This document shows, piece by piece, positions 1 to 29,499 of a stretch of DNA of 35,867 bases (within the stretch, counting starts at the first letter, position 1; every line of letters starts with the position of its first letter). The DNA is from a virus, in IMG/VR virus record IMGVR_UViG_3300045988_113479, positions 1 through 35,867 of that record; one strand, written 5' to 3'. The notes under the pieces are model-generated. The model made no database searches and was not told where the DNA came from. It worked only from the letters and a program-made list of their open reading frames with translations. A program made the position numbers and the translations under genes.

Positions 1-55
1 GTCGACGGAGACGAGGACGGCGCTCGCGGCCTCCCCGAGTGGGTCCTGGAGTTCC
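1..55. repeat. 55-bp terminal overlap, identical to 35813-35867 (closure of a circular contig)
   Basis: gtcgacggagacgaggacggcgctcgcggcctccccgagtgggtcctggagttcc occurs at both window ends. The overlap lies inside one continuous reading frame. Unique genome length is 35,812 bp. Confidence 0.9.
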
Positions 56-1392
56 ACCTCCACCCCAAGACGGGCAAGCCGCTGGACGACGTGCATAACT
101 GGGACCTTCTGATGAAGCATGACCCCGTGCTGCGTGCCCTGGCCCGTAACGACATGGACCTGACGACGGTCACGCGCCGCCAGTTCCCGTGGCGGACGGT
201 GGAGGCGGGTAAGGACGACGCGCTCACTAACGCCGACCGCGCCCAGATCAGCGCGCATTTGCAGCGCGCCTACAACATGCCCCGCCCCGCGCAGGAGCAG
301 CTTAACGGTGTGATCGACATGGTGGCGCAGGACAACGCTTTCCACCCCGTGGTCGAGTACCTGGAGTGCCTGGAATGGGACGGCATCTCGCGTGTGGAAA
401 CGTACTTGCCGGGCGCGCAGGATGACTACACGCGACGGGTGGCTCGCCTGGTGGCGGTGCAGGCCGTGGCCCGCGCCCTCGACCCCGGCGTGAAGGTGGA
501 CAACTGTCTCATCCTGACCGGGCGGCAAGGCCTGGGTAAGTCGTGGTTTGTCGAGACGATGGCACGCGGGTGGACCTGCACACTCGGACCAATCGAAGGC
601 GGCGGCCTGCGCGATACAGTCATGGCAATGACCCGCTCCTGGGTTACCGTCGCGGACGAGGGTTTCGCCATGAAGAAAGCCGACGCTGAAGCCCTGAAGC
701 AGTTCGTCACGCTCACGCACGACGTTATCCGCCTGCCCTACGCTAGGGAGCACGTGAAGCTCCCCCGCCGACAGGTTATCTGGGGAACCACCAATGATGC
801 CGTCTTCCTACGCGCGCAGGAAGGCAACCGCCGCTTCCTCATCGTGGAAGTGGCCGAAAAGCTGGACTTCGGTAAGTACTCGGACGAGTACGTGAACCAG
901 GTGTGGGCCGAGGCCGTCCACATCTGGAAGACCAGCAAGGCCCAGTATGGCCTGAAGGACAACCCGGAGTTGTTCTTGTCCGCGTCGGAGGAGGCGGCGG
1001 CGGAGTCCGTGCGCTCGATGGCGACCGAGGAAGACTCTATGACCGGCCTCATCCAGGCCTACCTGGACACGCTCGTCCCGGCCAACTGGGTGGAAATGTC
1101 GCCCGAAGAACGTATCAGTTGGCTACGCGACGCGGAACAGGGTATAGTGAGCGGTACGCACCCGATTGACGTGGTGTGCTCGCTTGAAATCTGGGAGATA
1201 GCGCTAGGCCGTGAGCGCGGGAAGCACTCTCGCGTGGACATCCTCCAGATCACCAACGCGCTGAAGCAACTGCCCGGCTGGTTCGGCCCCATGCCGAAGC
1301 CGACCAGGCTCCCGTTCTACGGGCCTCAGCGTGTGTTCGCCCGCATGGACGAACCCACCGACGTGAGCGACTCGCCCGAGTCACTCATCTAA
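1..1392 (+). CDS. DNA primase/helicase, C-terminal part (VirE/D5-like P-loop NTPase); continuation of the ORF starting at 34841
   Basis: Frame 1 is open from base 1, so the track start at GTG 91 is a linearisation artefact. P-loop LTGRQGLGKS and a VirE-like core (WGTTNDAVFLRAQEGNRRFLIVEV). In frame with ATG 34841 through the 55-bp overlap, giving 787 aa in total. Confidence 0.85.
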   Translation, partial: VDGDEDGARGLPEWVLEFHLHPKTGKPLDDVHNWDLLMKHDPVLRALARNDMDLTTVTRRQFPWRTVEAGKDDALTNADRAQISAHLQRAYNMPRPAQEQLNGVIDMVAQDNAFHPVVEYLECLEWDGISRVETYLPGAQDDYTRRVARLVAVQAVARALDPGVKVDNCLILTGRQGLGKSWFVETMARGWTCTLGPIEGGGLRDTVMAMTRSWVTVADEGFAMKKADAEALKQFVTLTHDVIRLPYAREHVKLPRRQVIWGTTNDAVFLRAQEGNRRFLIVEVAEKLDFGKYSDEYVNQVWAEAVHIWKTSKAQYGLKDNPELFLSASEEAAAESVRSMATEEDSMTGLIQAYLDTLVPANWVEMSPEERISWLRDAEQGIVSGTHPIDVVCSLEIWEIALGRERGKHSRVDILQITNALKQLPGWFGPMPKPTRLPFYGPQRVFARMDEPTDVSDSPESLI

Positions 1393-1423
1393 CCGATCAA
1401 CGATCACCAGGGAGAACCGGATC

Positions 1424-1885
1424 ATGGAAATCAACATCACTCTCGACGTGCAGGGCGCGACCGTGGAGGAGGTGCAGTGGCTGGCCGGTCTGCTGGCCGC
1501 GCAGCGCACCGCTCCCGCGCCGATCACCGTCGAGGTCGAGAAGGCAGCGCCCATCGCCCCGGCGGATGAGGAGAAGCCCGCCCCGAAGAAGGCGGCGGCG
1601 AAGAAGCCAGCCAAGAAGACGGCGAAGAAGTCCGACCCCGAGCCGGAGCCGACCCCCGAGCCTGCCCCGGCGGAGGACGAGACCGGCGGCGCGACCGTCG
1701 AGGACGAGACGGTCACCCCCGAGGCCGACCTGCTGGCGGTCGCCGTCGCGCGAGCCACCGAACTGATCGGCGCAGGCGAGCAGGACGCGATCAAGACCGC
1801 CCTCGAGGTGGCAGGCGCGCGCCGCGTCGGCCTCCTCAAGGGCGACCAGATTCAGGCCTTCCTCGACGCTCTCCCGGAGGCCTGA
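1424..1885 (+). CDS. hypothetical protein with a histone-H1/Hlp-like basic Ala/Lys/Pro tract followed by an acidic Pro/Glu tract
   Basis: ATG preceded by GGGAGAA. Central KPAPKKAAAKKPAKKTAKK followed by DPEPEPTPEPAPAEDE. Sits between the primase and the DUF2800 nuclease. Confidence 0.65.
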   Translation: MEINITLDVQGATVEEVQWLAGLLAAQRTAPAPITVEVEKAAPIAPADEEKPAPKKAAAKKPAKKTAKKSDPEPEPTPEPAPAEDETGGATVEDETVTPEADLLAVAVARATELIGAGEQDAIKTALEVAGARRVGLLKGDQIQAFLDALPEA

Positions 1886-1888
1886 CCA

Positions 1889-3043
1889 ATGCCTCCCAAG
1901 GGACACGCGAACCTTGGGCCGTCGAGCGCGGCGCGCTGGCTGGCCTGCCCGGCCAGCGTGCCGCTCGCAGCGGCGGCCCCCACCCCGCCCGAGTCGCCCC
2001 ACGCGGCGGAGGGCACGGCGGCGCACGCGCTCGCGGAGATCGTCGCCCGTTTCGAGCTGATCGACCACGACGAAGCCGCCCGCGACCACGCCCTAAACCA
2101 CTGGACGGCGAAATACGGCGAGACCTACGACATGGTGGACATGCTCCGCCATGTGGGCAAGTACGTGGACCAGGTGCGCGCCGACCTGGACGCTGAACCT
2201 CACTCCGTCCTGCTCCTGGAGCAGCGGATGGCGACCGGGATCCCCGGCGTGTGGGGGACAGGCGACGCGGTGGTGGTCTCACCTCGCGCCGTCCGCGTCC
2301 TCGACCTCAAATACGGTCAGGGCGTGCCAGTGAACGCGGTCGGAAACCCTCAGCTCCGCCTCTACGGCCTGGGTGCCCTGAACGAGTTCGGGGACCTCCT
2401 GGGCACCGTCGAGGAGGTCAGCGTGACTGTCGTCCAGCCTCGACTAGGGTCCGTCTCCTCCGAGACGCTCACCGTCCAGGAGCTGCTCGAGTGGCGCGAC
2501 ACCGTGGTGCTGCCCGGGGCCCAGAAGGTCGAGGACGGGTCAGATGAGTTCGGTCCCGGCGAGGCGGCTTGCCGCTGGTGCCCCGTGGCTGGCGAGTGCC
2601 GGGCGCGTCGTGACTTCCTCGTCGCCCGCGACTTCGGAGACCCCGGCCTCCTAGACGACGAGGAGGTGGGCGCGGAGCTGGAGCGCGTCGCCCAAATCCG
2701 CCACTGGTGCGACGCACTGGAGGGAGTCGCCTTCGACCGCATTTACACCGAGGGCCGGACCATCCCCGGCTTCAAGGTGGTGGCTGGCCGGGGTCGCCGT
2801 GTGGTGACTGACCCGGCGGCGGCTATCCAGACGCTGATCGACAGTGGATACCAGCCCGAGCAGGTGGCGGAGTTCAAGATTCTACCGCTTGGCAAACTGG
2901 AGAAGCTGGTGGGCAAGTCTGACCTCCCCGATCTGATCGGGGACTACATCACCAAGAAGGAGGGCAAGCCCTCCCTGGTGGGGGATGCGGACCCGCGTCC
3001 ACCTCTCACAGCCGCCGCGAGCGCTGCGGCGGACTTCGGGTAG
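1889..3043 (+). CDS. DUF2800-type PD-(D/E)XK (Cas4/RecB-like) exonuclease
   Basis: N-terminal HANLGPSSAARWLACPAS signature and a C-terminal Cys cluster (CRWCPVAGEC). Lies directly upstream of the DUF2815 and PolA genes, the canonical module order. Confidence 0.75.
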   Translation: MPPKGHANLGPSSAARWLACPASVPLAAAAPTPPESPHAAEGTAAHALAEIVARFELIDHDEAARDHALNHWTAKYGETYDMVDMLRHVGKYVDQVRADLDAEPHSVLLLEQRMATGIPGVWGTGDAVVVSPRAVRVLDLKYGQGVPVNAVGNPQLRLYGLGALNEFGDLLGTVEEVSVTVVQPRLGSVSSETLTVQELLEWRDTVVLPGAQKVEDGSDEFGPGEAACRWCPVAGECRARRDFLVARDFGDPGLLDDEEVGAELERVAQIRHWCDALEGVAFDRIYTEGRTIPGFKVVAGRGRRVVTDPAAAIQTLIDSGYQPEQVAEFKILPLGKLEKLVGKSDLPDLIGDYITKKEGKPSLVGDADPRPPLTAAASAAADFG

Positions 3044-3069
3044 ACAACCCGGAGACTAAGCGCTACACT
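3041..3069 (+). promoter_or_regulatory. putative promoter TAGACA-17-TACACT upstream of the SSB gene
   Basis: TAGACA 3041-3046 (overlaps the stop codon of the nuclease gene), a 17-nt spacer, then TACACT 3064-3069. The context gcgcTACACT resembles the gcgcTATACT of the five early cassettes. Confidence 0.35.
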
Positions 3070-3076
3070 ATGGGGT

Positions 3077-3107
3077 GTGCCGGGGCCTTGAGCCTCGGCC
3101 CCGGCAC
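3077..3107 (+). terminator. GC-rich hairpin (11-bp stem) between the nuclease and SSB genes; terminator and/or 5' leader hairpin
   Basis: GTGCCGGGGCC 3077-3087 pairs with GGCCCCGGCAC 3097-3107 across a 9-nt loop. It starts 7 nt after the TACACT hexamer, the same gap as in the five-copy early cassette. Confidence 0.5.
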
Positions 3108-3145
3108 GCTCACCGATTCACGATTACACGAAAGAGTTGATCACA

Positions 3146-3706
3146 ATGGCTAATCCCCGCAAGGTTGTCACCCGCGCCGACGAGAACATTCGCCTCGGCT
3201 ACGTCCACCTGCTGGAGCCATACACGGCCTCCACGGAGCAGGACCCCAGGTTCTCGTGCATGCTGATTATCCCCAAGACGGCGAAGCGCACGCTGGCGGC
3301 GATCAAGGCCGCGCAGGCCGCCGCTATCGAGGAGCAGAAGGCGAAGTTCGGCGGCAAGGTGCCGAAGAACCTGAAGTCCACCCTCCACGACGGCGACGAG
3401 GACGCAGACCTGGAGCGCAACCCGGAGCTTGAAGGCTGCTACTACATGAACGTCAGCGCGAAGCGCCGCCCTGGTGTCGTTGACCGCGACCTGAACCCGA
3501 TTCTGGACAGCACTGAGGTGTACTCGGGCATCTACGCCCGCGTCTCGATGTCCGCCTACTGCTACAACACCAACGGGAACCGGGGCGTGACCTTCGGCCT
3601 GGAGAACGTGCAGAAGGTCCGCGACGGCGAGATGCTGGGCGGCGGAGCGTCCCGCGCTGAGGATGACTTCGACGTTCTGGAGGACGACGAGGACGACATC
3701 CTGTAA
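3146..3706 (+). CDS. DUF2815-family single-stranded DNA-binding protein
   Basis: Start moved to ATG 3146 (GAAAGAG SD at 3131-3137). IRLGYVHLLEPY N-terminal signature and an acidic SSB-like tail, DDFDVLEDDEDDIL. Confidence 0.75.
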   Translation: MANPRKVVTRADENIRLGYVHLLEPYTASTEQDPRFSCMLIIPKTAKRTLAAIKAAQAAAIEEQKAKFGGKVPKNLKSTLHDGDEDADLERNPELEGCYYMNVSAKRRPGVVDRDLNPILDSTEVYSGIYARVSMSAYCYNTNGNRGVTFGLENVQKVRDGEMLGGGASRAEDDFDVLEDDEDDIL

Positions 3707-3726
3707 CATAGGCCCTGATGGGTCCC

Positions 3727-3771
3727 GACCCCCTCACCACCTTCTTGGTCCTGGTGGTGAGGGGGTCTTTT
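3727..3771 (+). terminator. canonical rho-independent terminator after the SSB gene
   Basis: GACCCCCTCACCACC 3727-3741 pairs with GGTGGTGAGGGGGTC 3753-3767 (15-bp stem, 11-nt loop), followed by TTTT 3768-3771. Confidence 0.8.
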
Positions 3772-3782
3772 CATCCCCTGGC

Positions 3783-3836
3783 TTGCATCGTAGCGCTTGG
3801 GTGCGCTATGCTGGTTCATGTCACCGCACGGGTGAC
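3783..3836 (+). promoter_or_regulatory. early cassette copy 1: promoter TTGCAT-18-TATGCT plus GTCACC/GGTGAC hairpin
   Basis: TTGCAT 3783-3788, TATGCT 3807-3812, a 7-nt gap, stem 3820-3825/3831-3836, then GAAAGGA 3846-3852 and ATG 3862. Confidence 0.65.
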
Positions 3837-3861
3837 CCCTGAACTGAAAGGACCAAGACCC

Positions 3862-4215
3862 ATGCCCCGAACACATGGACTGCGTTCCACCTACGTCGCC
3901 GGGTGCCGCTGCGACCAGTGCCGCGCCGCCAACCGCGAGTACGGACGCAAGAAGTCGCGCATCACCGACTTGACCCCTGCTCACCGGGAGGCGCAGCGCG
4001 CCGCCCAGGAGGCCAGCGTGGAGGCCGCCACCCGCTCACACCGCCCCTGGGAGCAGTGGGAGGACGAGGCGGCCGGAGACTACTCCAGATCGATCTCGGA
4101 GATTGCCGCCGACCTCGGGCGCACCGTCTCCTCGGTGCGCAACCGCCGCGCCGTGAAGGGCCTTCGCGCCAAGTGGCACGCCGCCCACGTCCTCGAGGGA
4201 GGCGAGCAGGAATGA
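3862..4215 (+). CDS. putative DNA-binding regulator (N-terminal GCRC-x2-C zinc-ribbon-like motif, C-terminal HTH-like segment)
   Basis: Start moved to ATG 3862, 9 nt after GAAAGGA; the upstream part of ORF 3718 covers a terminator and a promoter. Motifs STYVAGCRCDQCRAANREY and SISEIAADLGRTVSSVRNRR. Confidence 0.6.
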   Translation: MPRTHGLRSTYVAGCRCDQCRAANREYGRKKSRITDLTPAHREAQRAAQEASVEAATRSHRPWEQWEDEAAGDYSRSISEIAADLGRTVSSVRNRRAVKGLRAKWHAAHVLEGGEQE

Positions 4216-4412
4216 AGAAGTACCAGATCGACTGGGTGCAGTTCATCTGCGCCCTGATCACCGTCGTGAGCTTGGTCGGTGCCATCGTCGCCATGTTCAT
4301 CTTCCCGCGCCAGCCCTGGCCGGTCGTCTTCCCGCTCCTGTGCGTCGCCGCCCTGTTCTCGGTGATCGTTGACGCGCGTATGGAGGGGCACGGGCGGAGG
4401 GGCCGGAAATGA
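4212..4412 (+). CDS. small two-TM membrane protein (66 aa)
   Basis: ATG 4212 overlaps the upstream stop (ATGA) and its own stop overlaps the PolA start (ATGA). Hydrophobic spans WVQFICALITVVSLVGAIVAMFIF and VVFPLLCVAALFSVIV. Confidence 0.6.
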   Translation: MKKYQIDWVQFICALITVVSLVGAIVAMFIFPRQPWPVVFPLLCVAALFSVIVDARMEGHGRRGRK

Positions 4413-6289
4413 TTCCTCCCAGCCTTATCACCCCTGCCCCGGCCCCTGTCGTCGCGCTCCCGCACGACCTCTACGTGGACATTGAGACGTACTCGACCAC
4501 CGATATTAAGCGCGGGGTCTACCGCTACAGTGAGGACCCGGAGTTTCTCGTCCTCATGTGTGCGTGGGCGCTGGACGACGGTCCCGTGCAGGTCGCCGTC
4601 GGACGCGACGAGATCATGAAGATTCCCCACCTCCTCGACGGCTCCAACGTCGTCGTGAGATTCGCCCACAACGCACAGTTTGAGCGCGTTTGCCTCTCTC
4701 GATTCCGCGGACTACCGACTGGTCAATATCTCCCGCCTGAAGCCTGGGAGGACACGATGGCCCACATGGCGGAATGGGGATACCCGCAGTCCCTGGAGGG
4801 TGGGGCGAAGGCCCTCGGGGCCGACCCAAAGGACGGCGCGGGCGCGGCCCTCATTCGTTGGTTCTGCCAGCCGGACAGGAGCGGCAAGCGCCGCCTGCCC
4901 GAGGACCACCCCGAGAAGTGGGCGCAGTTTGTCGAGTATTGCCGCCAGGATGTGGCGACGATGCGAGACATGCGCCGCCGCCTCCTGCGCCGTCACGGTC
5001 AGGACTGGCCGACCGATCACGAGCGCCGTGTGTGGATTGCCGACCAGAAGGTCAACGACCTGGGCATTAGGGTGGACCTCGATATGGCCGCGAGCGCGGT
5101 CGAGGCGGCGAGCGAGAACCTCGCAGCCGACAAGGCCGAGGCCAAGGCCATCACCGGAGTGGAGAACCCGGGGAGCACGGCTCAGCTTCTCTCCTGGTTC
5201 GGTGGTCTCCTGCCTGACCTGAAGGCGGAGACGGTGCGCCAGGCGCTCACGCGCGACGATCTGACCGCCGATCAGCGGCGCGTCCTGGAGCTGCGCCAGA
5301 GCATGGCCCTAACAGCGCACAAGAAGTTTCAGACAGCGCTCGACGCGGCGAACACCGACGAGCGCCTGCGCGGTGGCTTCAGGTTCTTCGGCGCGCACAC
5401 CGGGCGGTGGGCGGGCCGGGGCCTCCAGCTCCAGAACCTGCCTCGCGCTGGCTTCTCGTCCGAGGCCGCTCAGGACGCGGCTATCCTTGACCTGACCCTG
5501 GGCCTCGGAGCCGACCCACACACGCTGAAGTCCCTCGTCCGCCCCATGCTGGTGGGGCCGTTCACCGTGTGCGATTACAGCGCGATTGAGGCGCGCGTGG
5601 TCGCCTGGTTGGCCGGGGAGGAGTGGGCGCTGGAGGCGTTCGCCAATGGCCGCGACATCTACGTGGAGACCGCCAACCGTATGGGCGGTGGCATGGGACG
5701 CAAGGAGGGCAAGGTGGCCGTCCTCGCCCTCGGCTACAACGGAGGCGTGGGGTCGCTCCAGGCTATGGGCGGCGCGGCGCTCGGTGATGAGACTGTCCTC
5801 CAGCGGATCGTCGACCAGTGGCGAGCCGCCAACCGGAATATCGTCCGTTTGTGGGGCCGTGTGGAGCGCGCGTTCTATTACGGCGGGCAGGCGGGCGAGC
5901 ACATTCGTGTGGAGGCCAGCGGGTCGGATCGTCTGGTGCGTCTGCCGTCTGGGCGCGCCGTCGTCTACCACCAGGTGCGCGCATCTCGGGACGGTCGGCT
6001 GTCCTTCCAGGACCCGAGGCAGCGGTGGCGCACGGACACCTACGGCGGGCGGCTCGTGGAAAACATCACGCAGGCGGTCGCCCGCGACGTGCTGGGCGCG
6101 GCCCTGGTACGTCTGGACGAGGAGGGCCACCGGGTGGTCGGCCATGTCCATGATGAGGTGATCGTGGAGGCTGCGCCCGGCTCGACGGTGCAGGCGGTGC
6201 ATGACGTGATGGTGCGGCCCCTGGATTGGTCGGAGGGCCTGCCCTTGGAGGCGGCGGGCTACGTGTGTAATCGGTATCGGAAGGATTAG
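4409..6289 (+). CDS. family A DNA polymerase with 3'-5' exonuclease domain (no 5' nuclease domain)
   Basis: Exo I DIETYS; motif A DYSAIEARVVAW; motif B RKEGKVAVLALGYNGG; motif C HVHDEVIVE. Confidence 0.95.
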   Translation: MIPPSLITPAPAPVVALPHDLYVDIETYSTTDIKRGVYRYSEDPEFLVLMCAWALDDGPVQVAVGRDEIMKIPHLLDGSNVVVRFAHNAQFERVCLSRFRGLPTGQYLPPEAWEDTMAHMAEWGYPQSLEGGAKALGADPKDGAGAALIRWFCQPDRSGKRRLPEDHPEKWAQFVEYCRQDVATMRDMRRRLLRRHGQDWPTDHERRVWIADQKVNDLGIRVDLDMAASAVEAASENLAADKAEAKAITGVENPGSTAQLLSWFGGLLPDLKAETVRQALTRDDLTADQRRVLELRQSMALTAHKKFQTALDAANTDERLRGGFRFFGAHTGRWAGRGLQLQNLPRAGFSSEAAQDAAILDLTLGLGADPHTLKSLVRPMLVGPFTVCDYSAIEARVVAWLAGEEWALEAFANGRDIYVETANRMGGGMGRKEGKVAVLALGYNGGVGSLQAMGGAALGDETVLQRIVDQWRAANRNIVRLWGRVERAFYYGGQAGEHIRVEASGSDRLVRLPSGRAVVYHQVRASRDGRLSFQDPRQRWRTDTYGGRLVENITQAVARDVLGAALVRLDEEGHRVVGHVHDEVIVEAAPGSTVQAVHDVMVRPLDWSEGLPLEAAGYVCNRYRKD

Positions 6290-6292
6290 CGC

Positions 6293-6345
6293 TTGCACGA
6301 GGTCGCCGGGTGCGCTATACTGACTTTTGTCACCGCCCCGGTGAC
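6293..6345 (+). promoter_or_regulatory. early cassette copy 2: promoter TTGCAC-17-TATACT plus GTCACCG/CGGTGAC hairpin
   Basis: TTGCAC 6293-6298, TATACT 6316-6321, a 7-nt gap, stem 6329-6335/6339-6345, GAAAGGA 6356-6362, ATG 6370. The cassette starts at the PolA stop codon (TAGCGCTTGCAC). Confidence 0.7.
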
Positions 6346-6369
6346 CCGAACCCCCGAAAGGAACCCATC

Positions 6370-6720
6370 ATGCGTACCGTTATTGCCGTCGATCTGAACA
6401 CCATGCGCGAGCTTGCCGACGAGGAGGCCGCCGTCCGCTCCGAGAAGACCGACTGGTGCGAGGCCGCCTACCGTGAGGAGGCCGTCCGCCGCGTCGAGGA
6501 GCGCCGCGAGACCCAGAAGATGATCGAGACGTGGGAGGCCCGTTGCCTCGCCCGTCTCCGTGCCATCGAGAACAAGGCCTTTGGGGCCATGACCGACATC
6601 TACATGGAGACCTCCTGCTACAGCTTCAGGGACTCCGCCCACGTCGGTAAGCTGGTGAAGGACGCGCAGGAGGCGCTCGCGGCGTTGCAGCGCTACGCGC
6701 TCGCGGAAATCACGAAGTAG
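6370..6720 (+). CDS. hypothetical early protein (116 aa, predicted helical/coiled)
   Basis: ATG 6370 lies 7 nt after GAAAGGA. The gene is flanked on both sides by cassette promoters. No motif recognised. Confidence 0.6.
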   Translation: MRTVIAVDLNTMRELADEEAAVRSEKTDWCEAAYREEAVRRVEERRETQKMIETWEARCLARLRAIENKAFGAMTDIYMETSCYSFRDSAHVGKLVKDAQEALAALQRYALAEITK

Positions 6721-6723
6721 CGC

Positions 6724-6778
6724 TTGCACACCCCGCGCGGGTGCGCTATACTTAAACATGTCACCGGGAAACGGTGAC
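6724..6778 (+). promoter_or_regulatory. early cassette copy 3: promoter TTGCAC-17-TATACT plus GTCACCG/CGGTGAC hairpin
   Basis: TTGCAC 6724-6729, TATACT 6747-6752, a 7-nt gap, stem 6760-6766/6772-6778 (loop GGAAA), GAAAGGA 6787-6793, ATG 6802. Again begins TAGCGCTTGCAC at the upstream stop codon. Confidence 0.7.
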
Positions 6779-6801
6779 CCCATCCAGAAAGGACCAAGAC
6801 A

Positions 6802-7140
6802 ATGACCGCCACCAGCATCTACCGCACCAACTGGGACCACACCAGCCTCCTGACCGCCAACCCCACCGGAAAGTGGGCCACCAACTTCGCCGCCGACCTC
6901 CGCCACCGTCGCTTCAACGGCGACTTCGGAGGCTACCGCCGCACTGGTCGCCTGATCGTCGTCTTCGAGAAGGGCATCGGCTACCGCATCATCTTCAAGA
7001 ACGAGGCCGGGGACCGCATGTTCAGCCACATCGAGGTCAACTGCCCCAGCCTCGACCACGCGCTGGACATCGTGGGTAGCTGGATGGGCCAGCCCGACAA
7101 CGTCCACATGTTCGCGCCCGTCGACCTCATCAACAACTGA
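6802..7140 (+). CDS. hypothetical early protein (112 aa)
   Basis: Consensus GAAAGGACCAAGACA-ATG initiation region and normal amino-acid composition. No motif recognised. Confidence 0.65.
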   Translation: MTATSIYRTNWDHTSLLTANPTGKWATNFAADLRHRRFNGDFGGYRRTGRLIVVFEKGIGYRIIFKNEAGDRMFSHIEVNCPSLDHALDIVGSWMGQPDNVHMFAPVDLINN

Positions 7141-7148
7141 TCAACCCA

Positions 7149-7178
7149 GGGAGGCCCCACCACCCGGCGGGGCCTCCC
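7149..7178 (+). terminator. GC hairpin of the type II intergenic module (10-bp stem)
   Basis: GGGAGGCCCC 7149-7158 pairs with GGGGCCTCCC 7169-7178. No T-tract. Near-identical to the hairpin at 30868-30895. Followed by CCACCC..GAAAGGAC..CATCATG. Confidence 0.5.
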
Positions 7179-7205
7179 ACCCAACACCCCTGAAAGGACA
7201 CCATC

Positions 7206-7511
7206 ATGGCAAGCAAGATCGAGATTCCCGTCAACGGAGGGTCCGGCAAGCTCATTTACTGGCTTCGTCAGCACAAGCTCGGAGTGCCCGGCAAGTTCGG
7301 CCTCATCCCCGCCGAGAAGATCGACCAGATCAGCATCGACCACCGCGCCGTCGACGGCGCGCCCGGCTGGCAGATCATCCACGTGCTGGCCGAAGGCATC
7401 CTCTACGCCTACAGCATCTCCGAGGCCAGCCTGAGCGACCTCAACGCGATTCGCCTCCAGGTGCAGGGCGCGCGCGACATCGCCCGCATCAACCAGCAGC
7501 TTGGAAACTGA
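7206..7511 (+). CDS. hypothetical early protein (101 aa)
   Basis: GAAAGGA at 7192-7198 sits 7 nt before the ATG. No motif recognised. Confidence 0.65.
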   Translation: MASKIEIPVNGGSGKLIYWLRQHKLGVPGKFGLIPAEKIDQISIDHRAVDGAPGWQIIHVLAEGILYAYSISEASLSDLNAIRLQVQGARDIARINQQLGN

Positions 7512-7527
7512 GAAAGGACCAAGACCC

Positions 7528-7890
7528 ATGAACTTCACCGACCAGCTCCAGGACGGCCTGGACCAGCTCAGGGATGCCCTCGAGGCCTTCGCCTTCGCCC
7601 TGAAGGCGGTCCCGATCCAGCGGGGGCACCTCACCGTCCCTAACGACGAGGTGACCGGCGAGTACCTCGCCAGCCTCCCGGTCGGTCTCACCCTCCACGA
7701 GCGCGAGCTTGCCGCCGCCCGCCTGGACAACCTGATCACCATCCGACGCGAAACGAGCTGCTTCGTCCGCCTCCCGCTCAGCAACGAGCACAGCGGCAAG
7801 CTCATCACCTACGAGCTGAAGGCCCACGACGGCCACACGCACGTGGCGTTTAACCTCGCCGCCCGTCCCGTCGATCCGGAAACCCTCTGA
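7528..7890 (+). CDS. hypothetical early protein (120 aa)
   Basis: Start moved to ATG 7528 (GAAAGGACCAAGACCC-ATG). The upstream stop TGA 7509-7511 abuts the SD. Confidence 0.65.
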   Translation: MNFTDQLQDGLDQLRDALEAFAFALKAVPIQRGHLTVPNDEVTGEYLASLPVGLTLHERELAAARLDNLITIRRETSCFVRLPLSNEHSGKLITYELKAHDGHTHVAFNLAARPVDPETL

Positions 7891-7904
7891 AAGGACCAAG
7901 ACAA

Positions 7905-8423
7905 ATGACCTCACGACAGATCGACATCCACGACCGCCGAAACCTGGCCGACCTCATCCGCCGCGCCGCCTACGCGGAAACCGTCTACCTGGGGGCCGCC
8001 GTCCTCCATCAGGACATGAACGTTGGCTACGCCGTCGCAAACATGTTCCCGGACCTCTGCGCCGTCGACCGGGGGATCATCGACGTGACCGTTAACGGGG
8101 CCGTCGAGCGGATCGCGCGGGAAGGCTCCGGCCTCGAGGAGACCCTGGTCTTTGACATCCCCGCCGACGAGAGCCACCACCGCGAGCCGCTCCTGGCCGT
8201 TGTCGAGCTGTACGGGTACGAGCCGATGGCCCCGAACGTGAACAAGGGACTCAGGACGCAGGTCCTCGTCCGTCTCACCCAGGCCAACCCGGACATGCCC
8301 GGCGTGAACGAGCAGACCGTTCAGGACATCGTGAACATGCTGAACGTCTCGGACAAGATGCGGGCGGGCATGTCCGCCTACACCCTCACCGGCAACGCAC
8401 AGTCCATCCGCGACAGCTTCTAG
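7905..8423 (+). CDS. hypothetical early protein (172 aa)
   Basis: The upstream stop TGA 7888-7890 is embedded in TGAAAGGACCAAGACAA-ATG. No motif recognised. Confidence 0.65.
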   Translation: MTSRQIDIHDRRNLADLIRRAAYAETVYLGAAVLHQDMNVGYAVANMFPDLCAVDRGIIDVTVNGAVERIAREGSGLEETLVFDIPADESHHREPLLAVVELYGYEPMAPNVNKGLRTQVLVRLTQANPDMPGVNEQTVQDIVNMLNVSDKMRAGMSAYTLTGNAQSIRDSF

Positions 8424-8468
8424 TCCGCGGACTCCGAAAACTGACCACACCTGAAAGGACCAACCATC

Positions 8469-9026
8469 ATGACCGACTACGGCACCACACCCCAAGACCT
8501 CCTCCTGCGCGTCGCCTCCGAGAAGGCCGCCGTCTACGGCATCTCCTGGCGCAAACGCGGCGAGGCCTTCTCCATCGTCCCCAACATCGCCAGGAAGGTT
8601 GACCGCCTGGGCGCGCCCGGCGCGGGAGACACCGAACTAGACACGAGGATGGACCTCGTGAACTACCTCGCCTTGTACGTCGGTTGGACGTGGCGAAACA
8701 TTGTCGGCTCCTACACCGCCCACGCCCCGGCCCTCGTCGCCCGCCCCGCCCGTATGGGCGACCTCGATTACGAGACAGGCGCGAACTACGACGTGGCAGC
8801 CGCCGCCCGGGTGATCGAGCGGTGCGCCGCTATCGTTAGGGTCCCCCGCGTCACCTGCCCGGACGAGCAGCTTATCAAGCTGGTTCAGCTCACCCTCGAG
8901 GAGCTGTGTGACGAAGTGCTGAGCCGCGAGCGCAGCATGGACCGCAGCTTGGTGATCCTGAGCCGCCTCCTCGGGCATGCGTGGGAGCTATACCGCCGCG
9001 AGTGGGACATGGCTGTGGTATCGTAG
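8469..9026 (+). CDS. hypothetical protein, possibly DUF1599/MazG-like all-alpha fold (weak)
   Basis: GAAAGGA at 8453-8459. The segment KAAVYGISWRKRGEAFSIVPNIARKVDRL resembles the DUF1599/MazG-like helical signature, judged from memory only. Confidence 0.5.
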   Translation: MTDYGTTPQDLLLRVASEKAAVYGISWRKRGEAFSIVPNIARKVDRLGAPGAGDTELDTRMDLVNYLALYVGWTWRNIVGSYTAHAPALVARPARMGDLDYETGANYDVAAAARVIERCAAIVRVPRVTCPDEQLIKLVQLTLEELCDEVLSRERSMDRSLVILSRLLGHAWELYRREWDMAVVS

Positions 9027-9030
9027 CCGC

Positions 9031-9085
9031 CACACAAGACGAGGCCCCTCCAACCGGACTGGTTGGAGGGGCCTCGTCTTGTGTG
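9031..9085. terminator. bidirectional terminator at the convergence of the two arms (25-bp perfect stem)
   Basis: CACACAAGACGAGGCCCCTCCAACC 9031-9055 is the exact reverse complement of 9061-9085, with a 5-nt loop. It sits between the plus-arm stop (9026) and the minus-arm stop (9089). Confidence 0.8.
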
Positions 9086-9088
9086 TGC

Positions 9089-9499
9089 CTACAGCTCGTC
9101 CCAGCCCTCCGGAAGCGGGGGAGGAGGCCCAGGCTGCGGCGCTAACCCAGGCGAGGGCGCAGGCGTTACGCCCGGCTGCGCTCGCGGCTCAGGCTCAACA
9201 GCAGGCGACGCTGGGACCGTGGTCGGCTCCAGCAGCTCCGCGATAGTCACGTGCTGGCCCTCCACCAGGTCCATCTCGCGCTCAGCCAACAGGCCCGATG
9301 GTGTGTACACACGGAGCCTGTACCGCCCAGGGTGCAGGCTGGCCGAAATCGGCGTGCGAACACCCGCCGCGAGATTACCCGCGACGAGCACGTTCCCGTC
9401 GGCCATCCGCGCCGGGTCCGGGATGGGCTTCGCGTGAACCGTCATGGGGACGATACGCCCGGTGGGGGTCTGCACGGACCCCTCGATGAAAGCAGTCAT
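9089..9499 (-). CDS. lysis-cassette protein 4: beta-sandwich-like N-domain with a Pro-rich tail (136 aa), function unknown
   Basis: Start moved to ATG 9499 (AGGAG SD; ATGA overlap with the upstream stop). A GRYRLRVYTPSG segment resembles carboxypeptidase-regulatory-like folds. C-terminal tail PAPSPGLAPQPGPPPPLPEGWDEL. No signal peptide. Confidence 0.55.
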   Translation of the reverse strand: MTAFIEGSVQTPTGRIVPMTVHAKPIPDPARMADGNVLVAGNLAAGVRTPISASLHPGRYRLRVYTPSGLLAEREMDLVEGQHVTIAELLEPTTVPASPAVEPEPRAQPGVTPAPSPGLAPQPGPPPPLPEGWDEL

Positions 9500-10014
9500 G
9501 ACGACGCTCCTATGGTCGAGAGCGTATCCCGGAGCGCCTCGTGCTCCGCCCACGCCGTCTCCTGAATATTGTCAATCCGAGCGCCCAGGTCCCGCATATC
9601 GCGGTCCTGGCGCTCGGTAATATTGGTGAGCACCTGACCATGAGAAGCAAGCACCTGGCCGTGCGCGTCCAACGTCGAACGGAAACCCTCTTGGTTCTGC
9701 TCGATGCGGCGCACCGCGTCCTTGATGCTGCCCCCATGATTCGGGGTCACCTCATGGTGTACTTCTGACAGCGAGGCCTCCAGCGCGTCCAGACGCTGGT
9801 CGATCTTCCCCGCGATAGCCTCCAGCGCGGCCGATGTTTCGGCCTGCTCGCGCTCGGCGCGGGCCTTGCCGACCTGCTCCCGGACCAGGAGCGCCTCCGC
9901 CTTAGCCTTCTCTCGCCCCCACTTCATGCCAGCGAGGACGGACACGGCGGTCACCAGGCCCCCGAAGGCGACTCCGGAGGCGCTGATGACGGCCACGACC
10001 TCGCCGGGATTCAC
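9496..10014 (-). CDS. lysis-cassette protein 3: N-terminal single-TM plus long coiled-coil protein (172 aa)
   Basis: TM span VVAVISASGVAFGGLVTAVSVLAGM followed by a charged helical region. The start overlaps the holin stop. Confidence 0.6.
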   Translation of the reverse strand: MNPGEVVAVISASGVAFGGLVTAVSVLAGMKWGREKAKAEALLVREQVGKARAEREQAETSAALEAIAGKIDQRLDALEASLSEVHHEVTPNHGGSIKDAVRRIEQNQEGFRSTLDAHGQVLASHGQVLTNITERQDRDMRDLGARIDNIQETAWAEHEALRDTLSTIGASS

Positions 10015-10283
10015 TGGGGCGAGTCCTCCAGGTCTCGCTCACCGTAGATCGGGGCCTCGTAGACCCCGCCCGTGTGGGAGGCGGCAAGCACGAGGGCGAT
10101 AAGACCCAGCGCCTTATCCGCCACGTCGAGCCAGTGCGTGGACTGTTCCGGCGTGACCAGGCCGTAGGCCATGCCCACCGCCAGGAGCGCCGCCACAATG
10201 CCGTAAATGGCCTTGCGGCGCGGCGGCGTAAGAGCCGCCCACTTCGTGCGATCAGTCGTGAGAGCATGCTTCGGAGCACCCAT
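10011..10283 (-). CDS. holin-like protein with two TM segments (90 aa)
   Basis: Start moved to ATG 10283 (GGAGGA 8 nt upstream). TM1 AIYGIVAALLAVGMAYGLV and TM2 ALGLIALVLAASHTGGV. Lies immediately downstream of the endolysin gene. Confidence 0.7.
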   Translation of the reverse strand: MGAPKHALTTDRTKWAALTPPRRKAIYGIVAALLAVGMAYGLVTPEQSTHWLDVADKALGLIALVLAASHTGGVYEAPIYGERDLEDSPQ

Positions 10284-10285
10284 GA

Positions 10286-11332
10286 TTACCATCCTCCATT
10301 CAGCAGCGCCTGCTGCATTGCTTCGACCGTGGGAGACGGGGCATCCAGGCACCCGTCGCCCTCCAGTCCGTACCGTGCGGCGAGTGCGTTCGCCGTGTCC
10401 GGCCCCATGAGGCCGTCAGCCTCCACGCCGAGGGCCGTCTGCATGGCCTCGATGAGGAGGGAGCCTTCCGCGACCTCGGTGGGCACAAACTCCCAGCCGG
10501 ACGTGCAGGCAGGAAGCGCGTCGCGGTTCACCGCCGCCTGGGACGACACCACGCCGTCCACCGTCGTGCCCAGGACACCCTGGAGGAGGCGCGTCGTCGC
10601 CTCGCCCCAGTAGCCGTCGACGGCGGGCTGGTGGGCTGCGGTGGGGACGATGCTCGCGCCGCGCAGCGCAGCCAGCGTCTGGGGACCCGGGATACCGTCG
10701 ATCTCCAGGCCACCGTTCGCCTCCTGGAAGGCCTTAATCGCGGCGTAGGTGTTCTCGCCCAGGATGCCGTCTGCGCCGTCCTCACCCAGGTCGTAGCCTC
10801 GCGCCAGGAGCTGCTGCTGGACTTCGCGCACGTAGTCCTCGCCGTACCCGTTGGCGTTGTAGCCGGAACCGTGGCCGTAGGTGGACACGCCGCCCGTATC
10901 CGACCCCGTGAACCTGAGAACACAGTCCCACGGGTAATCGTAATAGCGGCGGATGTTGGTCTCGTTGGCCTGGTCGCCTGCCTGGCCGCCCGCGATCTCG
11001 CCGCGCTCGTCAATCGAGGCCTGAGCGAGAAGACCGCCACCCAGGTAGACCGCGACGTGGTTGGCGTGGTTGAGCAGGATGTCGCCGCGCTCCAGGTCGG
11101 TATCGGGGTCGAGCAGGTCCCAGCCGCGAGCGGTCAGCTCGCGGGCCATGTTGCCCGTGTACGTCGCGTTGCCGGTGTCAAAGCCGCGCGCCTTCAGCAC
11201 GCCGATAACGAGCGCCGAACAGTCGGTCTCGCCACCCACGCGCAGGTCCCAGCGGTTCCACTGGTCGTAACCCAGGTCACCGTACTGGCACCACCACTGC
11301 ATGTCATATGCAAATGCGTCAATATCTGGCAT
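10286..11332 (-). CDS. endolysin: N-terminal Cys/His peptidoglycan hydrolase (Amidase_5 / NlpC-P60-like) plus repeated PG_binding_1-like domains
   Basis: Catalytic-type motifs GGETDCSALV and NHANHVAVYLGG. C-terminal repeats of the type DGILGENTYAAIKAFQ, VDGYWGEATTRLLQ and ADGLMGPDTANALA. Confidence 0.85.
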   Translation of the reverse strand: MPDIDAFAYDMQWWCQYGDLGYDQWNRWDLRVGGETDCSALVIGVLKARGFDTGNATYTGNMARELTARGWDLLDPDTDLERGDILLNHANHVAVYLGGGLLAQASIDERGEIAGGQAGDQANETNIRRYYDYPWDCVLRFTGSDTGGVSTYGHGSGYNANGYGEDYVREVQQQLLARGYDLGEDGADGILGENTYAAIKAFQEANGGLEIDGIPGPQTLAALRGASIVPTAAHQPAVDGYWGEATTRLLQGVLGTTVDGVVSSQAAVNRDALPACTSGWEFVPTEVAEGSLLIEAMQTALGVEADGLMGPDTANALAARYGLEGDGCLDAPSPTVEAMQQALLNGGW

Positions 11333-11334
11333 GG

Positions 11335-11646
11335 TTAGTTCTCCTTCTTGTCCTTCAGTGCTTGCCGGAGGGCGAACAGCAAGTGCTCGTCCGTCACGGC
11401 GGATAGGTCCTCGCCCACCTCGGGCGGGACCTTGGCAAGCGCCAGGTACCGCTTCTCGAACGCGTCTTCGTACACGTCCGCGATAGCCTGCTTGCCCGTG
11501 TTGTCGGCATTGGAGACGACGATGTTACGCCAGGAGGCCTCCACCTCGTTCTCCGTCATGCCCAGCGTCGCCGCCAGGGCAACGGCGCGCTCCTTCAGCG
11601 CGGCATCCTTCGTCACCGCGATCAGTGCCCGGCTTGTTGCAGCCAT
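11335..11646 (-). CDS. hypothetical protein (103 aa) between the fibre and endolysin genes
   Basis: Start moved to ATG 11646 (GAAGGGGG SD after the fibre stop). The upstream part of ORF 11832 overlaps the fibre gene. Confidence 0.55.
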   Translation of the reverse strand: MAATSRALIAVTKDAALKERAVALAATLGMTENEVEASWRNIVVSNADNTGKQAIADVYEDAFEKRYLALAKVPPEVGEDLSAVTDEHLLFALRQALKDKKEN

Positions 11647-11659
11647 GAAAAGCCCCCTT

Positions 11660-12394
11660 CTAGGCCTTGATAATGTAGCCCACCGCGTAGAACGGAGGGA
11701 GGTTGTTGTGCGGCTTGTTGCCGCCCGTAGCCGCCGCGTCCAGGTAGCCAAGCTGGCCCGAACCGGACCCCGCCGCGACGGTCCACTTGCCGCCCGAGCC
11801 CGCATCCGACCGCCAGATACCCACGCCGCCAAACCACGAGCTGTCGTAACCCTGGCCGATCACCTTGTGGTTGTGGAACGGCATCTCAGCGGTGGTCAGG
11901 GTGTGGGTCTCCTCGCCGCCCGTCTGCGCTCGCGGGTGGGTGGCCGACGTGCCCATGAGGAAACGGCCCCGAAGGTCAGGCACGGCGAAGTCCGCGCCCG
12001 TCCCTGTCGCGCCGAGGACCGCCGCGAGCGCCGGATACTGCGCCTTCTTGTAGGCCGTCCCATCACACAGGAGCCACCCGGCGGGAGCCTTCACCCCCGC
12101 ATAGGCCACGACGGTGCCCACCGGGGCGGAAGAACCGCCGTCGCCCGTCTGCGTCTCCCGCACCGTCCCCAGAAGGTAGAGACGGCGGTTGACGCTGACC
12201 GTCCAGACGCGGCGGCCCGTCTTCAAGTCACCCGCAAAGTTGATCGGGTCAGCGGACAGGGGCGTTGCGTCGCCGTCAAGCTGCACGCGCAACGGGTCGG
12301 TGCCGACCACGACGGCCCACCGGAAGACGGGAGCGAGGTCGAGGCGCGAGCGCAGGCCCGCGACAACGTTCATGAGGTAGTCGAGCGTCGTCAT
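11660..12394 (-). CDS. tail fibre / receptor-binding protein with phage tail-collar domain
   Basis: Collar-domain signature APAGWLLCDGTAYKKAQYPALAAVLG...FAVPDLRGRFLMG...GGEETHTLTTAEMPFHNH. ATGA overlap with the upstream gene. Confidence 0.8.
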   Translation of the reverse strand: MTTLDYLMNVVAGLRSRLDLAPVFRWAVVVGTDPLRVQLDGDATPLSADPINFAGDLKTGRRVWTVSVNRRLYLLGTVRETQTGDGGSSAPVGTVVAYAGVKAPAGWLLCDGTAYKKAQYPALAAVLGATGTGADFAVPDLRGRFLMGTSATHPRAQTGGEETHTLTTAEMPFHNHKVIGQGYDSSWFGGVGIWRSDAGSGGKWTVAAGSGSGQLGYLDAAATGGNKPHNNLPPFYAVGYIIKA

Positions 12395-13434
12395 AGGTCG
12401 GTCACCTCCAGGAGCTTGGTTTTCACGAGCGCGGTGGGGTCCAGCGTGTACTCGATCTCCTTCACGACACCCTGCGTCGTGTGCCCCTGGCTGGAGAAGC
12501 CCGCCACCTGGTTGGGCTGGAGGGGCACCGGCATGTGCTGGATTGTGATCGACGCGGACGGCGTGGACACGTCGATGAGGCGGCGGCGCGCCTGCGAGTC
12601 GATGGACTCTTGATTAGCGGCCTCCACGCCCGTCTGGGTCTCGACAATCCACCGTCCGCGCGCCTGGAATGAGTAGGCGCTGGCGGGGTCCTCGTTGGTC
12701 GCCACGCCCACCAGAGCCGCCTTATCCTGGCTACCCTCGGACACCAGGACCACCTTGTTGGGGACGCTGGCCGCGTCCAGTTCACGCTCCCACTCGGGGA
12801 GGTGGATAGCCCTCGCGCCCTCCCGGAAGTCGTAGGCCACGCCGCGCGCCGCCGGACGCACGTAGGGGTCCAGGTGGACCTGCCCCTCACCGTCCGGGTG
12901 CGCCGACCAGTAGCCCGCCGCCGAGAGTAGCTCGTTGGCTATGGTCAGCTTGGACTTGCCCGGATCGTACACGATGTCGGACGACGCGGTGGCCGTCGAC
13001 GGCGTGATGGACAGGCGCTCCAGGCCGGTGTCGCGCAGCAGCCCCGCCGCCACGTCGATCAAGTTGGACCCCGCCTTCACCACGTAGGTGCGGTCCACGC
13101 AATCAGCATCCGGGAGGGCCAGCGGGGACGACAGGTCAACGTCCCACGTAGACCCGGCCTCACCGTAGGAGCGGGTGGGCGCAGACAGGAGGAACACGCC
13201 CAGGCCCCAGGTCTGGCCGGGCGTGGCGTAGTCGACGCGGACGCGCTGAGTCATCCAGTCGATAGGCCCGCACGCCTCCGTGAGACTCAGGCTCCCAGAC
13301 GCACGCAGCCTCGTGGAGTTGCTAAGCGTTATGTTCCCGCCAGTCACGCCGTCCAGACGACGGATTACACGGTCCTTGGAGTCCAGGAGAGTGACCGTGT
13401 AATCCGCCTGCCTATGGGTGTCGAGACCGCTCAC
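12391..13434 (-). CDS. minor tail protein (Tal / baseplate-hub-like N-terminal type)
   Basis: 347 aa in the position after the distal-tail-like protein and before the fibre. GTGA coupling to the upstream gene. The call rests on synteny. Confidence 0.6.
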   Translation of the reverse strand: MSGLDTHRQADYTVTLLDSKDRVIRRLDGVTGGNITLSNSTRLRASGSLSLTEACGPIDWMTQRVRVDYATPGQTWGLGVFLLSAPTRSYGEAGSTWDVDLSSPLALPDADCVDRTYVVKAGSNLIDVAAGLLRDTGLERLSITPSTATASSDIVYDPGKSKLTIANELLSAAGYWSAHPDGEGQVHLDPYVRPAARGVAYDFREGARAIHLPEWERELDAASVPNKVVLVSEGSQDKAALVGVATNEDPASAYSFQARGRWIVETQTGVEAANQESIDSQARRRLIDVSTPSASITIQHMPVPLQPNQVAGFSSQGHTTQGVVKEIEYTLDPTALVKTKLLEVTDL

Positions 13435-19970: not shown

Positions 19971-20314
19971 TGTCGGAGAGACCGGAAAACCGACTGGACA
20001 AACTCGACCACCTTGGAGTATCGGAGCTTGCCGGACTCCTCACGGAGGGCGGTCAGCGCGGCCTCGCGCTCGCCCTCATCCGGGATAAGTAGCTCCAGCA
20101 TGGGGCGGTAGTCGCCCTGCTCCATTGCCACCATTGCGTCGAAATCATCCACGTCGGTGGGGTCAACGTCGAGGGCAACGCCCATGACCTCGACGTGAAC
20201 GGGCTGGGGCGCGCCAGTGTCGCGCTTGGACTGGGCCTCACGGCGCGCCAGCTCAGCGGCGGACGGTGCCTTACGGGCGGCGGGCTTACGGGCGGTGGTG
20301 GTCTTGGTAGCCAT
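19961..20314 (-). CDS. tail assembly chaperone (gpG-like, 117 aa)
   Basis: Start moved to ATG 20314 (AGGAGAACAG SD). Lies between the major tail and tape measure genes and ends at the slippery site. Confidence 0.75.
   Translation of the reverse strand: MATKTTTARKPAARKAPSAAELARREAQSKRDTGAPQPVHVEVMGVALDVDPTDVDDFDAMVAMEQGDYRPMLELLIPDEGEREAALTALREESGKLRYSKVVEFVQSVFRSLRQGN
19964..19970 (-). other. -1 programmed ribosomal frameshift slippery heptamer G_GGA_AAC
   Basis: On the minus strand, cag GGA AAC tga. The X_XXY_YYZ heptamer ends 1 nt before the gpG stop, and the -1 frame continues GGG AAA CTG ATC... Confidence 0.7.
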
Positions 20315-20376
20315 GATCTGTTCTCCTAAAAATTGGCTATCGGTTAAATTGGCCTGTTCTCCAAAGGGGTGTGATG

Positions 20377-29468: not shown

Positions 29469-29499
29469 TGGGTTTTTCGTTGGTATTCTGCGGAACTTT

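Follow-up and report, generated by a model that had tools for sequence, protein, structure and literature searches.

A repeated, predicted early promoter with a hairpin at its expected transcription start in the genome of an uncultivated virus, apparently an actinophage

The viral sequence IMGVR_UViG_3300045988_113479 (IMG/VR; positions 1 to 35,867 of the record, 35,867 nt, here called the window) was analysed for an intergenic unit of ~80 bp that occurs five times and combines a predicted promoter, a short hairpin and a ribosome-binding site. The first 55 nt of the window (1-55) are identical to the last 55 nt (35813-35867), and the window therefore represents a circular (or circularly permuted) complete genome of ~35.8 kb; its G+C content is ~66%. 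Early and replication genes occupy the plus strand from ~29.8 kb through the junction to ~9.0 kb. They include a VRR-NUC nuclease, an SNF2 helicase, a DUF2800 nuclease, a gp2.5-like single-stranded DNA-binding protein, a primase-polymerase/VapE fusion gene that crosses the junction (~34841 to 1392) and a family A DNA polymerase (PolA) gene at 4409-6289. Late genes (endolysin, tail genes, tape measure, portal and terminase) lie on the minus strand between 9.5 and 28.7 kb. Neither an integrase nor a repressor was detected among the window genes. The virus is apparently an uncultivated actinophage of virulent lifestyle, and its uncultured hosts would be high-GC, probably oral, bacteria. A known cultured phage was ruled out, as the window had no megablast match; the closest cultured PolA proteins, those of Glutamicibacter phage Montesquieu and Brevibacterium phage LuckyBarnes, were 51% identical. 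Relatives of the window were abundant in IMG/VR and in metagenomes, and many of the matching contigs were human-associated, judged from contig names.

The unit consists of a TTGCNN -35 box, a 17-19 nt spacer ending in GGGTGNNC, a TAT(A/G)CT -10 box, 7 nt, a GTCACC(G)-loop-(C)GGTGAC hairpin, the Shine-Dalgarno (SD) sequence GAAAGGA and an ATG. A sequence-only reading of the window had placed five such copies on the plus strand, and both the positions and the shared layout were confirmed at all five sites. A pattern search for GTCACC-N(5-7)-GGTGAC found five palindromes in the window, where 0.02 were expected from shuffles. The copies are as follows; TAGCGCTT is an 8-mer with the core palindrome AGCGCT.

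3783-3812, plus strand: copy 1 promoter, -35 box TTGCAT (3783-3788), 18-nt spacer with TAGCGCTT (3791-3798) and GGGTGCGC (3799-3806), -10 box TATGCT (3807-3812)
3820-3836, plus strand: copy 1 hairpin, GTCACC-GCACG-GGTGAC, 6-bp stem and 5-nt loop, 7 nt after the -10 box
3846-3852, plus strand: copy 1 GAAAGGA, ATG at 3862, gene 3862-4215
6287-6321, plus strand: copy 2 promoter, TAGCGCTT (6287-6294, TAG being the PolA stop), -35 box TTGCAC (6293-6298), 17-nt spacer ending in GGGTGCGC, -10 box TATACT (6316-6321)
6329-6345, plus strand: copy 2 hairpin, GTCACCG-CCC-CGGTGAC
6356-6362, plus strand: copy 2 GAAAGGA, ATG at 6370, gene 6370-6720, missing in several relatives
6718-6752, plus strand: copy 3 promoter, TAGCGCTT (6718-6725, TAG being the stop of gene 6370-6720), -35 box TTGCAC (6724-6729), GGGTGCGC, -10 box TATACT (6747-6752)
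6760-6778, plus strand: copy 3 hairpin, GTCACCG-GGAAA-CGGTGAC
6787-6793, plus strand: copy 3 GAAAGGA, ATG at 6802, gene 6802-7140
30606-30611: inverted TAGCGC core upstream of copy 4
30616-30646, plus strand: copy 4 promoter, -35 box TTGCAC, 19-nt spacer ending in GGGTGTGC, -10 box TATACT (30641-30646)
30654-30672, plus strand: copy 4 hairpin, GTCACCG-AGAGA-CGGTGAC
30680-30697, plus strand: copy 4 SD-ATG span with GAAAGGA, ATG at 30695, 54-aa gene 30695-30859
31895-31935, plus strand: copy 5 promoter, TAGCGCTT (31895-31902), -35 box TTGCGT (31907-31912), GGGTGCCC, -10 box TATACT (31930-31935)
31943-31959, plus strand: copy 5 hairpin, GTCACCG-CCC-CGGTGAC
31970-31988, plus strand: copy 5 SD-ATG span with GAAAGGA, ATG at 31986, gene 31986-33224 (412 aa, signal-peptide-like N-terminus)

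The spacers of copies 1 to 5 measure 18, 17, 17, 19 and 17 nt. The distance between the -10 box and the hairpin was 7 nt in every copy, with four of the five gaps ending in CAT; 7-10 nt separate the hairpin from the SD and 7-9 nt the SD from the ATG. A single half-site sequence is used throughout the window, the 7-mer arms being separated by 3 or 5 nt. The TAG within TAGCGCTTGCAC, which had been read as the stop codon of the gene upstream of copies 2 and 3, was confirmed as that of PolA and of gene 6370-6720. Both GGGTGNNCTAT(A/G)CT and TTGC(A/G)(C/T)-N(17-19)-TAT(A/G)CT were confined to the five sites, all on the plus strand, and no partial copies of the unit were found on either strand of the window. 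At all five sites the hexamers, the 17-19 nt spacing, the intergenic position and the co-orientation with the genes are those of sigma-70/sigma-A promoters (TTGACA-like and TANNNT hexamers 16-19 nt apart). The unit would act as a strong housekeeping-sigma (sigma-A/sigma-70 type) promoter of the early, replication-gene arm.

The spread of the unit was followed by a scan of viral and metagenomic DNA in which GGGTGNNCTATACT and GAAAGGA were the only fixed parts and the hairpin was unconstrained; 51 viral and more than 118 metagenomic loci were recovered. In related phages, a profile made from the five window copies detected 201 units, ~100 of them distinct. Among the GTCACC..GGTGAC palindromes in all loci collected, 212 of 215 sat 6 nt (98) or 7 nt (114) after TAT(A/G)CT, and two of the remaining three followed TATTCT; the hairpin was thus never found away from a promoter. 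The gap described as invariant at 7 nt is so in the five window copies and not in the relatives. Loops were of at least 14 types and 3-9 nt long. Column entropies, computed within orthologous groups over the ~100 distinct units, were 0.007 and 0.015 for the two stem arms, 0.015 for the SD, 0.042 for the -10 box and 0.073 for GGGTGNNC, followed by the loop (0.20), the post-stem segment (0.34), the gap (0.40) and the -35 box (0.45). Within the window lineage the stem arms were conserved as strongly as the -10 box. The -10 box and the GGGTG element were near-invariant among these relatives while neighbouring bases drift, which supports the promoter reading. In one genome per species (185,579 bacterial and archaeal species), CTATACT-N6-7-GTCACC-N5-7-GGTGAC had 17 matches, none of them actinobacterial or related. 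This points to a phage-specific unit and rules out a generic host promoter element or a prophage. No meaningful match to the promoter-hairpin unit was present in 50,697 phage records.

In actinobacterial promoters, transcription is expected to start at a purine 6-8 nt after the -10 hexamer. Given the 6-7 nt offset in every lineage, the start is predicted at the first G of the GTCACC stem or 1-2 nt upstream of it. The messages would then begin with a G+C-rich stem-loop of 6-7 bp, followed by an unstructured C/A-rich leader and GAAAGGAC. The hairpin was the dominant predicted structure in all five leaders, which at 51-53 nt folded at -11.5 to -13.8 kcal/mol (copy 1, 52 nt, -12.6 kcal/mol; the copy 2 hairpin alone ~-10). 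Fold z-scores were -2.8 for copy 4 and -3.3 for copy 5. The SD was partly paired in a weak secondary helix of 2-4 bp in four of the five predicted folds and fully unpaired only in copy 4. Rfam gave no match at the gathering score anywhere in the window, which ruled out a known RNA family for the hairpin. An intrinsic terminator of the upstream gene was also ruled out, as the hairpin lacks a U tract and lies 3' of the promoter.

The interpretation that we place first, and hold with roughly even confidence, is that the unit serves as a repeated early promoter and gives its transcripts a stem-loop flush with the 5' end, which protects them against 5'-end-dependent decay. A flush hairpin would hide the 5' triphosphate or monophosphate from the RNase J 5' exonuclease, the RNase E 5' sensor and pyrophosphohydrolase. 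It would stabilise early phage mRNAs and insulate the ribosome-binding site from upstream sequence.

Distant relatives were collected via PolA homologues, and their loci are given L-numbers here. The promoter and the 6-7 nt offset were kept in these relatives, with the stems GTAACC/GGTTAC, GTCGCC/GGCGAC, ATCACC/GGTGAT, ATACCC/GGGTAT and TCCTC/GAGGA. L195 and L199 encode PolA proteins 71-72% identical to that of the window, at 51-52% G+C and with the same gene order. In L195, seven units consist of TAGCGCTT, exactly 15 nt, TATACT or TAATAT, 6-7 nt, a hairpin and GAAAGGAC; its stems are GTAACC/GGTTAC (four times), ATACCC/GGGTAT and TCCTC/GAGGA, and three stems are also found in L199. L200 (PolA 76%) has ATCACC/GGTGAT and GTCACC/GGTGAC on a single contig, and L108 and L161 have GTCGCC/GGCGAC with a 9-nt loop. 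Over 28 distinct hairpins, pairing was kept in 90.8% of cells and four of the seven pairs had changed on both sides. The covariation score was 0.269 versus 0.097 for shuffled alignments (reached in 0 of 500), and slid controls did not exceed 0.065. The stem that had been called invariant is so within the window lineage only; in distant relatives it varies by compensatory substitution.

Several observations weigh against a protective RNA hairpin. Compensatory change is equally expected of a co-evolving symmetric DNA operator. Inside the window lineage the arms show no covariation, and both are sequence-invariant over five paralogues with diverged flanks; structure alone needs no fixed sequence, and this invariance therefore hints at sequence-specific recognition. 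The hairpin is not obligatory, as one orthologous unit of L195 and L199 lacks it altogether. Singleton arm variants comprised three G.U wobble pairs and four A.C mismatches, which is no wobble excess and is uninformative, and the fold z-scores of three leaders were modest (-1.4 to -1.6). That the promoters are active, where transcription starts and how mRNA half-life is affected are all inferred from sequence. Since the invariance of the stem sequence within a lineage is unexplained by structure, two alternatives in which a protein reads the palindrome, as DNA or as RNA, stay alive.

The first is that the palindrome is a double-stranded DNA operator centred near +10, through which a dimeric phage regulator shuts off or times the five early promoters. 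We regard this as unlikely, although it fits the arms being conserved on a par with the -10 box, the overlap of the palindrome with predicted +1 to +19, a classic repressor position, and the compensatory changes between lineages, which are symmetric as operator-protein co-evolution would have them. In addition, a conserved candidate helix-turn-helix (HTH) regulator, the product of gene 3862-4215, is itself encoded downstream of copy 1. Compensatory change alone cannot separate an RNA stem from an operator; the spacing, the mixed stems and the loop asymmetry do. The 6-mer arms are 4, 5, 6, 7 or 9 nt apart across relatives and differ by 2 nt between copies in one genome, unlike a fixed-spacing site. 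Two or three unrelated stems stand behind the same promoter in single genomes (L195, L199 and L200). The centre of the palindrome is strongly strand-asymmetric, with 43% A and 3% T on the sense strand, whereas the untranscribed gap upstream has 33% A and 38% T. The candidate HTH protein is ~50% identical, with its HTH kept, across lineages with different stems, and a repressor or integrase was, as stated above, not detected. Variable spacing, mixed stems and strand-asymmetric loops thus favour an RNA 5' hairpin over a fixed-spacing dimer operator as far as sequence comparison can tell, in line with the preference of the sequence-only reading for an RNA-level element; no inference of that reading ran counter to the data.

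The product of gene 3862-4215 has 117 aa and is encoded directly upstream of PolA in all lineages examined. Its arginine-rich N-terminus carries an HGLRSTYxxGCRCxxCR motif, which is possibly zinc-binding, and its C-terminus has a confidently predicted helical HTH-like domain. The Pfam family Sigma70_r4_2 matched at E 0.016, below the cutoff, and the top Foldseek matches (GerE, LuxR and sigma-r4) were all non-significant at E >0.7. A homologue carries the name 'RNA polymerase subunit alpha' in one public record.

Seven copies of TAGCGCTT were present in the window versus 0.46 expected, all of them in promoter regions. The motif abuts the -35 box in copies 2 and 3, lies inside the spacer of copy 1 and is found upstream of copy 5. 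The other three sites are at 3058-3065 and 29812-29819 (both minus strand), over the -10 boxes of predicted promoters 3041-3069 and 29795-29823, and at 28726-28733, near the late promoter. In L195, TAGCGCTT occurred eight times versus 0.36 expected (sites spanning 463-12794); seven were exactly 15 nt upstream of -10 boxes without a -35 box, and the first early gene has a cluster of five full palindromes, TAGCGCTA. On these distributions, TAGCGCTT/TAGCGCTA is a better candidate than the hairpin palindrome for a protein-binding DNA site, and the 8-mer is a likely regulator-binding box. A MotA box takes the place of the -35 element in the middle promoters of T4. Similarly, TAGCGCTT occupies the -35 position in L195, L199, L200 and L108, 15-16 nt upstream of a good -10 box; unlike in T4, its distance is variable in the window lineage, a TTGCAC -35 box is present there, and no MotA or AsiA homologue was found. 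Two predicted promoters of the window are leaderless. The early one, within 29795-29833 (plus strand), reads TCGACA-17-TAACAT, and its -10 box is followed after seven nt by the ATG at 29831. Its late counterpart, 28677-28695 (minus strand), reads TGCTATAAT with the ATG at 28679 seven nt after; it is without a good -35 box and has two GCGCTAAA repeats upstream.

In the second alternative, which appears rather doubtful, the RNA hairpin is recognised as a tag by a phage protein, for N/boxB-like antiterminator loading, for translational regulation or as a mark that exempts phage mRNAs from the decay which the phage induces in host mRNA. The invariance of the stem sequence within a lineage suggests a partner that reads sequence, the product of gene 3862-4215 has the arginine-rich N-terminus, and a strong terminator-like hairpin (30868-30895) lies shortly 3' of copy 4. 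In the N-utilisation sites of phage lambda, the loop of the boxB RNA hairpin is conserved and recognised, and the purine pentaloops of the units (AGAGA, AGAAA, GGAAA) recall boxB loops. As in lambda, a short hairpin lies near the predicted start of early transcripts, and two of the five window copies have purine pentaloops. Unlike in boxB, where the loop is the determinant, the loops differ between copies (CCC, GCACG, GGAAA, AGAGA) and it is the stem that is conserved. L195 and L200 each combine more than one stem, Rfam had no match, and no boxA-like partner motif, N-like protein or other RNA-binding protein was identified. The conservation profile of the ~100 distinct units also showed no conserved partner motif between the hairpin and the SD. 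A more far-reaching version, to which we give only a slim chance, has the hairpin as a lineage-specific 5' tag read by a phage protein, for antitermination, translation loading or exemption from a phage-triggered destruction of host mRNA, with the TAGCGCTT box bound by the product of gene 3862-4215 as a small activator resembling sigma region 4, which replaces -35 recognition. If true, tag reading by a phage protein would explain why the stem sequence is frozen per lineage beyond what pairing requires.

It is highly improbable that the hairpin acts as DNA without a binding protein (as a cruciform or single-stranded hairpin for recombination or priming) or is a hitch-hiking, gene-converted sequence: gene gain and loss coincides exactly with unit boundaries, three deletion junctions fall within the loop and L195 has near-identical duplicated units, but the arms are far more conserved than the adjoining bases, which short-tract conversion explains poorly, and the position relative to the -10 box is fixed across lineages despite the replaced stem sequence.

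The ribosome-binding site of the unit is shared more widely. GAAAGGA occurred 12 times on the plus strand of the window and not once on the minus strand, and seven of its 12 early genes have no promoter-hairpin. GAAAGGA is the general ribosome-binding site of all early genes, separate from the repeat, and its earlier description as a part specific to the unit was overstated. All 12 of these plus-strand genes combine GAAAGGAC(C) with ATG. The late genes have GGAGG/AGGAG-type sites, none has GAAAGGA, and 9 of 18 start with GTG or TTG. This split between early and late ribosome-binding sites is a dichotomy of the start-associated sequence (SAS) type.

Comparison of the relatives also showed that the units delimit genes. 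Four arrangements were found 3' of PolA: both unit-led genes, the second only, the first only, or neither. The arrangement with the second gene only, lacking the equivalent of 6370-6720, was seen in at least seven contigs. Each arrangement has one intact or hybrid unit at the junction, and in three contigs the deletion junctions lie within the hairpin loop. In other relatives, units also stand before the orthologues of genes 7206, 31156 and 33287, which are unit-less in the window. Acting as a direct repeat of ~80 bp, the unit would allow homologous recombination between copies to add or remove the intervening genes, and the compared sequences indicate that the units behave as recombination break-points. 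The proposal that the unit marks a module boundary is supported, as post-PolA genes are present or absent exactly at its edges.

Other features of the two arms were noted. Where the early and late arms converge, a perfect 25-bp inverted repeat (~9032-9086) probably serves as a bidirectional terminator. The region 29370-29730, which separates the late arm from the early one, has an AT-rich core (~29490-29625) with about six direct TTGTTAC repeats on its left flank and inverted GTAACA/GTAACG repeats on its right; it resembles a replication origin or a regulator array, and L195 has the same layout at 1-601. The strong G+C hairpin at 30868-30895 (GGAGGCCCCG..CGGGGCCTCC), without a U tract, directly follows the 54-aa gene driven by copy 4 and may be a terminator or attenuator within the early arm; in L186 a similar hairpin stands in place of that gene.

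Next to PolA, the relatives of lower identity, L195 (11845-15556), L197 (11842-15470), L199 and L200, encode an HMUDK-like kinase, homologues of thymidylate synthase, a dCTP deaminase and glycosyl or amino transferases. This neighbourhood suggests DNA with hypermodified thymidine or cytosine, and the window lineage is without these putative hypermodification genes. L197 (PolA 60% lineage) has a different repeated intergenic element at 4385-4468, 4751-4833 and 5629-5718, with inverted repeats (8-14 bp arms) that differ in sequence per copy around a conserved GCTGGCATAGTT loop. The same hairpin was sought in phage LuckyBarnes and was absent; this phage has its own repeated promoter (..GTGAGTTATAGTTATTACATCA) without a hairpin. 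The LuckyBarnes early promoter (L194) has five copies (6887-6993, 11571-11659, 17953-18020, 20280-20413 and 20678-20805) of the form TTGnnn..(A/G)GTGAGTTATAGTTA(A)TTACATCA, with a GTG placed 3 nt before the -10 box, an arrangement also seen in GGGTGCGCTATACT.

Stem-loops at the 5' terminus are established mRNA stabilisers, as in the hairpin of the Escherichia coli ompA 5' untranslated region, the Bacillus subtilis aprE leader and the phage T7 gene 10 leader. The window unit resembles these in having a short stable hairpin at or near the predicted 5' end, followed by a strong ribosome-binding site, and in that pairing is kept while the loop sequence is unimportant. It differs from them in occurring five times per genome with its own promoter and in a stem that is fixed within the lineage, and its 5' end is a predicted one.

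Among actinophages, the SAS of Cluster K mycobacteriophages and Cluster EF Microbacterium phages is an over-conserved ribosome-binding-site motif on a subset of non-structural genes; about half of the copies have an upstream inverted repeat, the extended SAS (ESAS), with a variable spacer and a consensus that differs between subclusters, and no function was assigned (PMC3203893, PMC7302621). The ESAS arms are 17 bp and imperfect, are separated by 4-13 bp, lie just upstream of the SAS (motif GGGATAGGAGCCC) and were not described as abutting a promoter (PMC3203893, PMC7302621). GAAAGGA is likewise confined to the early (plus-strand) arm, and the EF consensus GGGAAAGGACCCC has GAAAGGAC in common with the window phage. 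Unlike those of the ESAS, the window arms are perfect, measure 6-7 bp and without exception follow the -10 box by 6-7 nt. The likeness is one of architecture only, and the sequence is not homologous to the Cluster K motif. Intergenic palindromes of 17-18 bp are known from Cluster O mycobacteriophages (TGTTCGGNNNCCGAACA) and Cluster EG Microbacterium phages (GATCAACCNNGGTTGATC); their spacers are fixed at 3 or 2 bp, and their orientation is not consistent (PMC4351075, PMC7302621). The Cluster O sites, most of them not associated with promoters, are predicted targets of a dimeric DNA-binding protein (PMC4351075). The window units share with these palindromes the invariant short arms (7-8 bp there), the many copies 5' of gene starts and the lack of a detectable repressor or integrase, but they vary in spacing and each of them accompanies a promoter. 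By sequence, the window unit belongs to none of the Cluster K, O, EF and EG motifs, and combines the architecture of K/EF with the perfect short arms of O/EG. It is set apart by its lock to the predicted start of a near-consensus promoter.

The principle of a 5' hairpin that protects or marks mRNAs is already known, and the window unit is a tidy, testable variant of it rather than a novel type of system. Actinophages of clusters K, O, EF and EG have been reported to carry conserved inverted repeats beside start codons, none with an assigned function. The window lineage offers an unusually clean case, in which the repeat always lies at the predicted first transcribed base, the stems co-vary between lineages and ~200 natural variants are available. 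With its promoter, 5' hairpin and ribosome-binding site, the unit would form a compact expression part for high-GC Gram-positive bacteria, and it illustrates how short repeated regulatory units serve as break-points for phage gene gain and loss.

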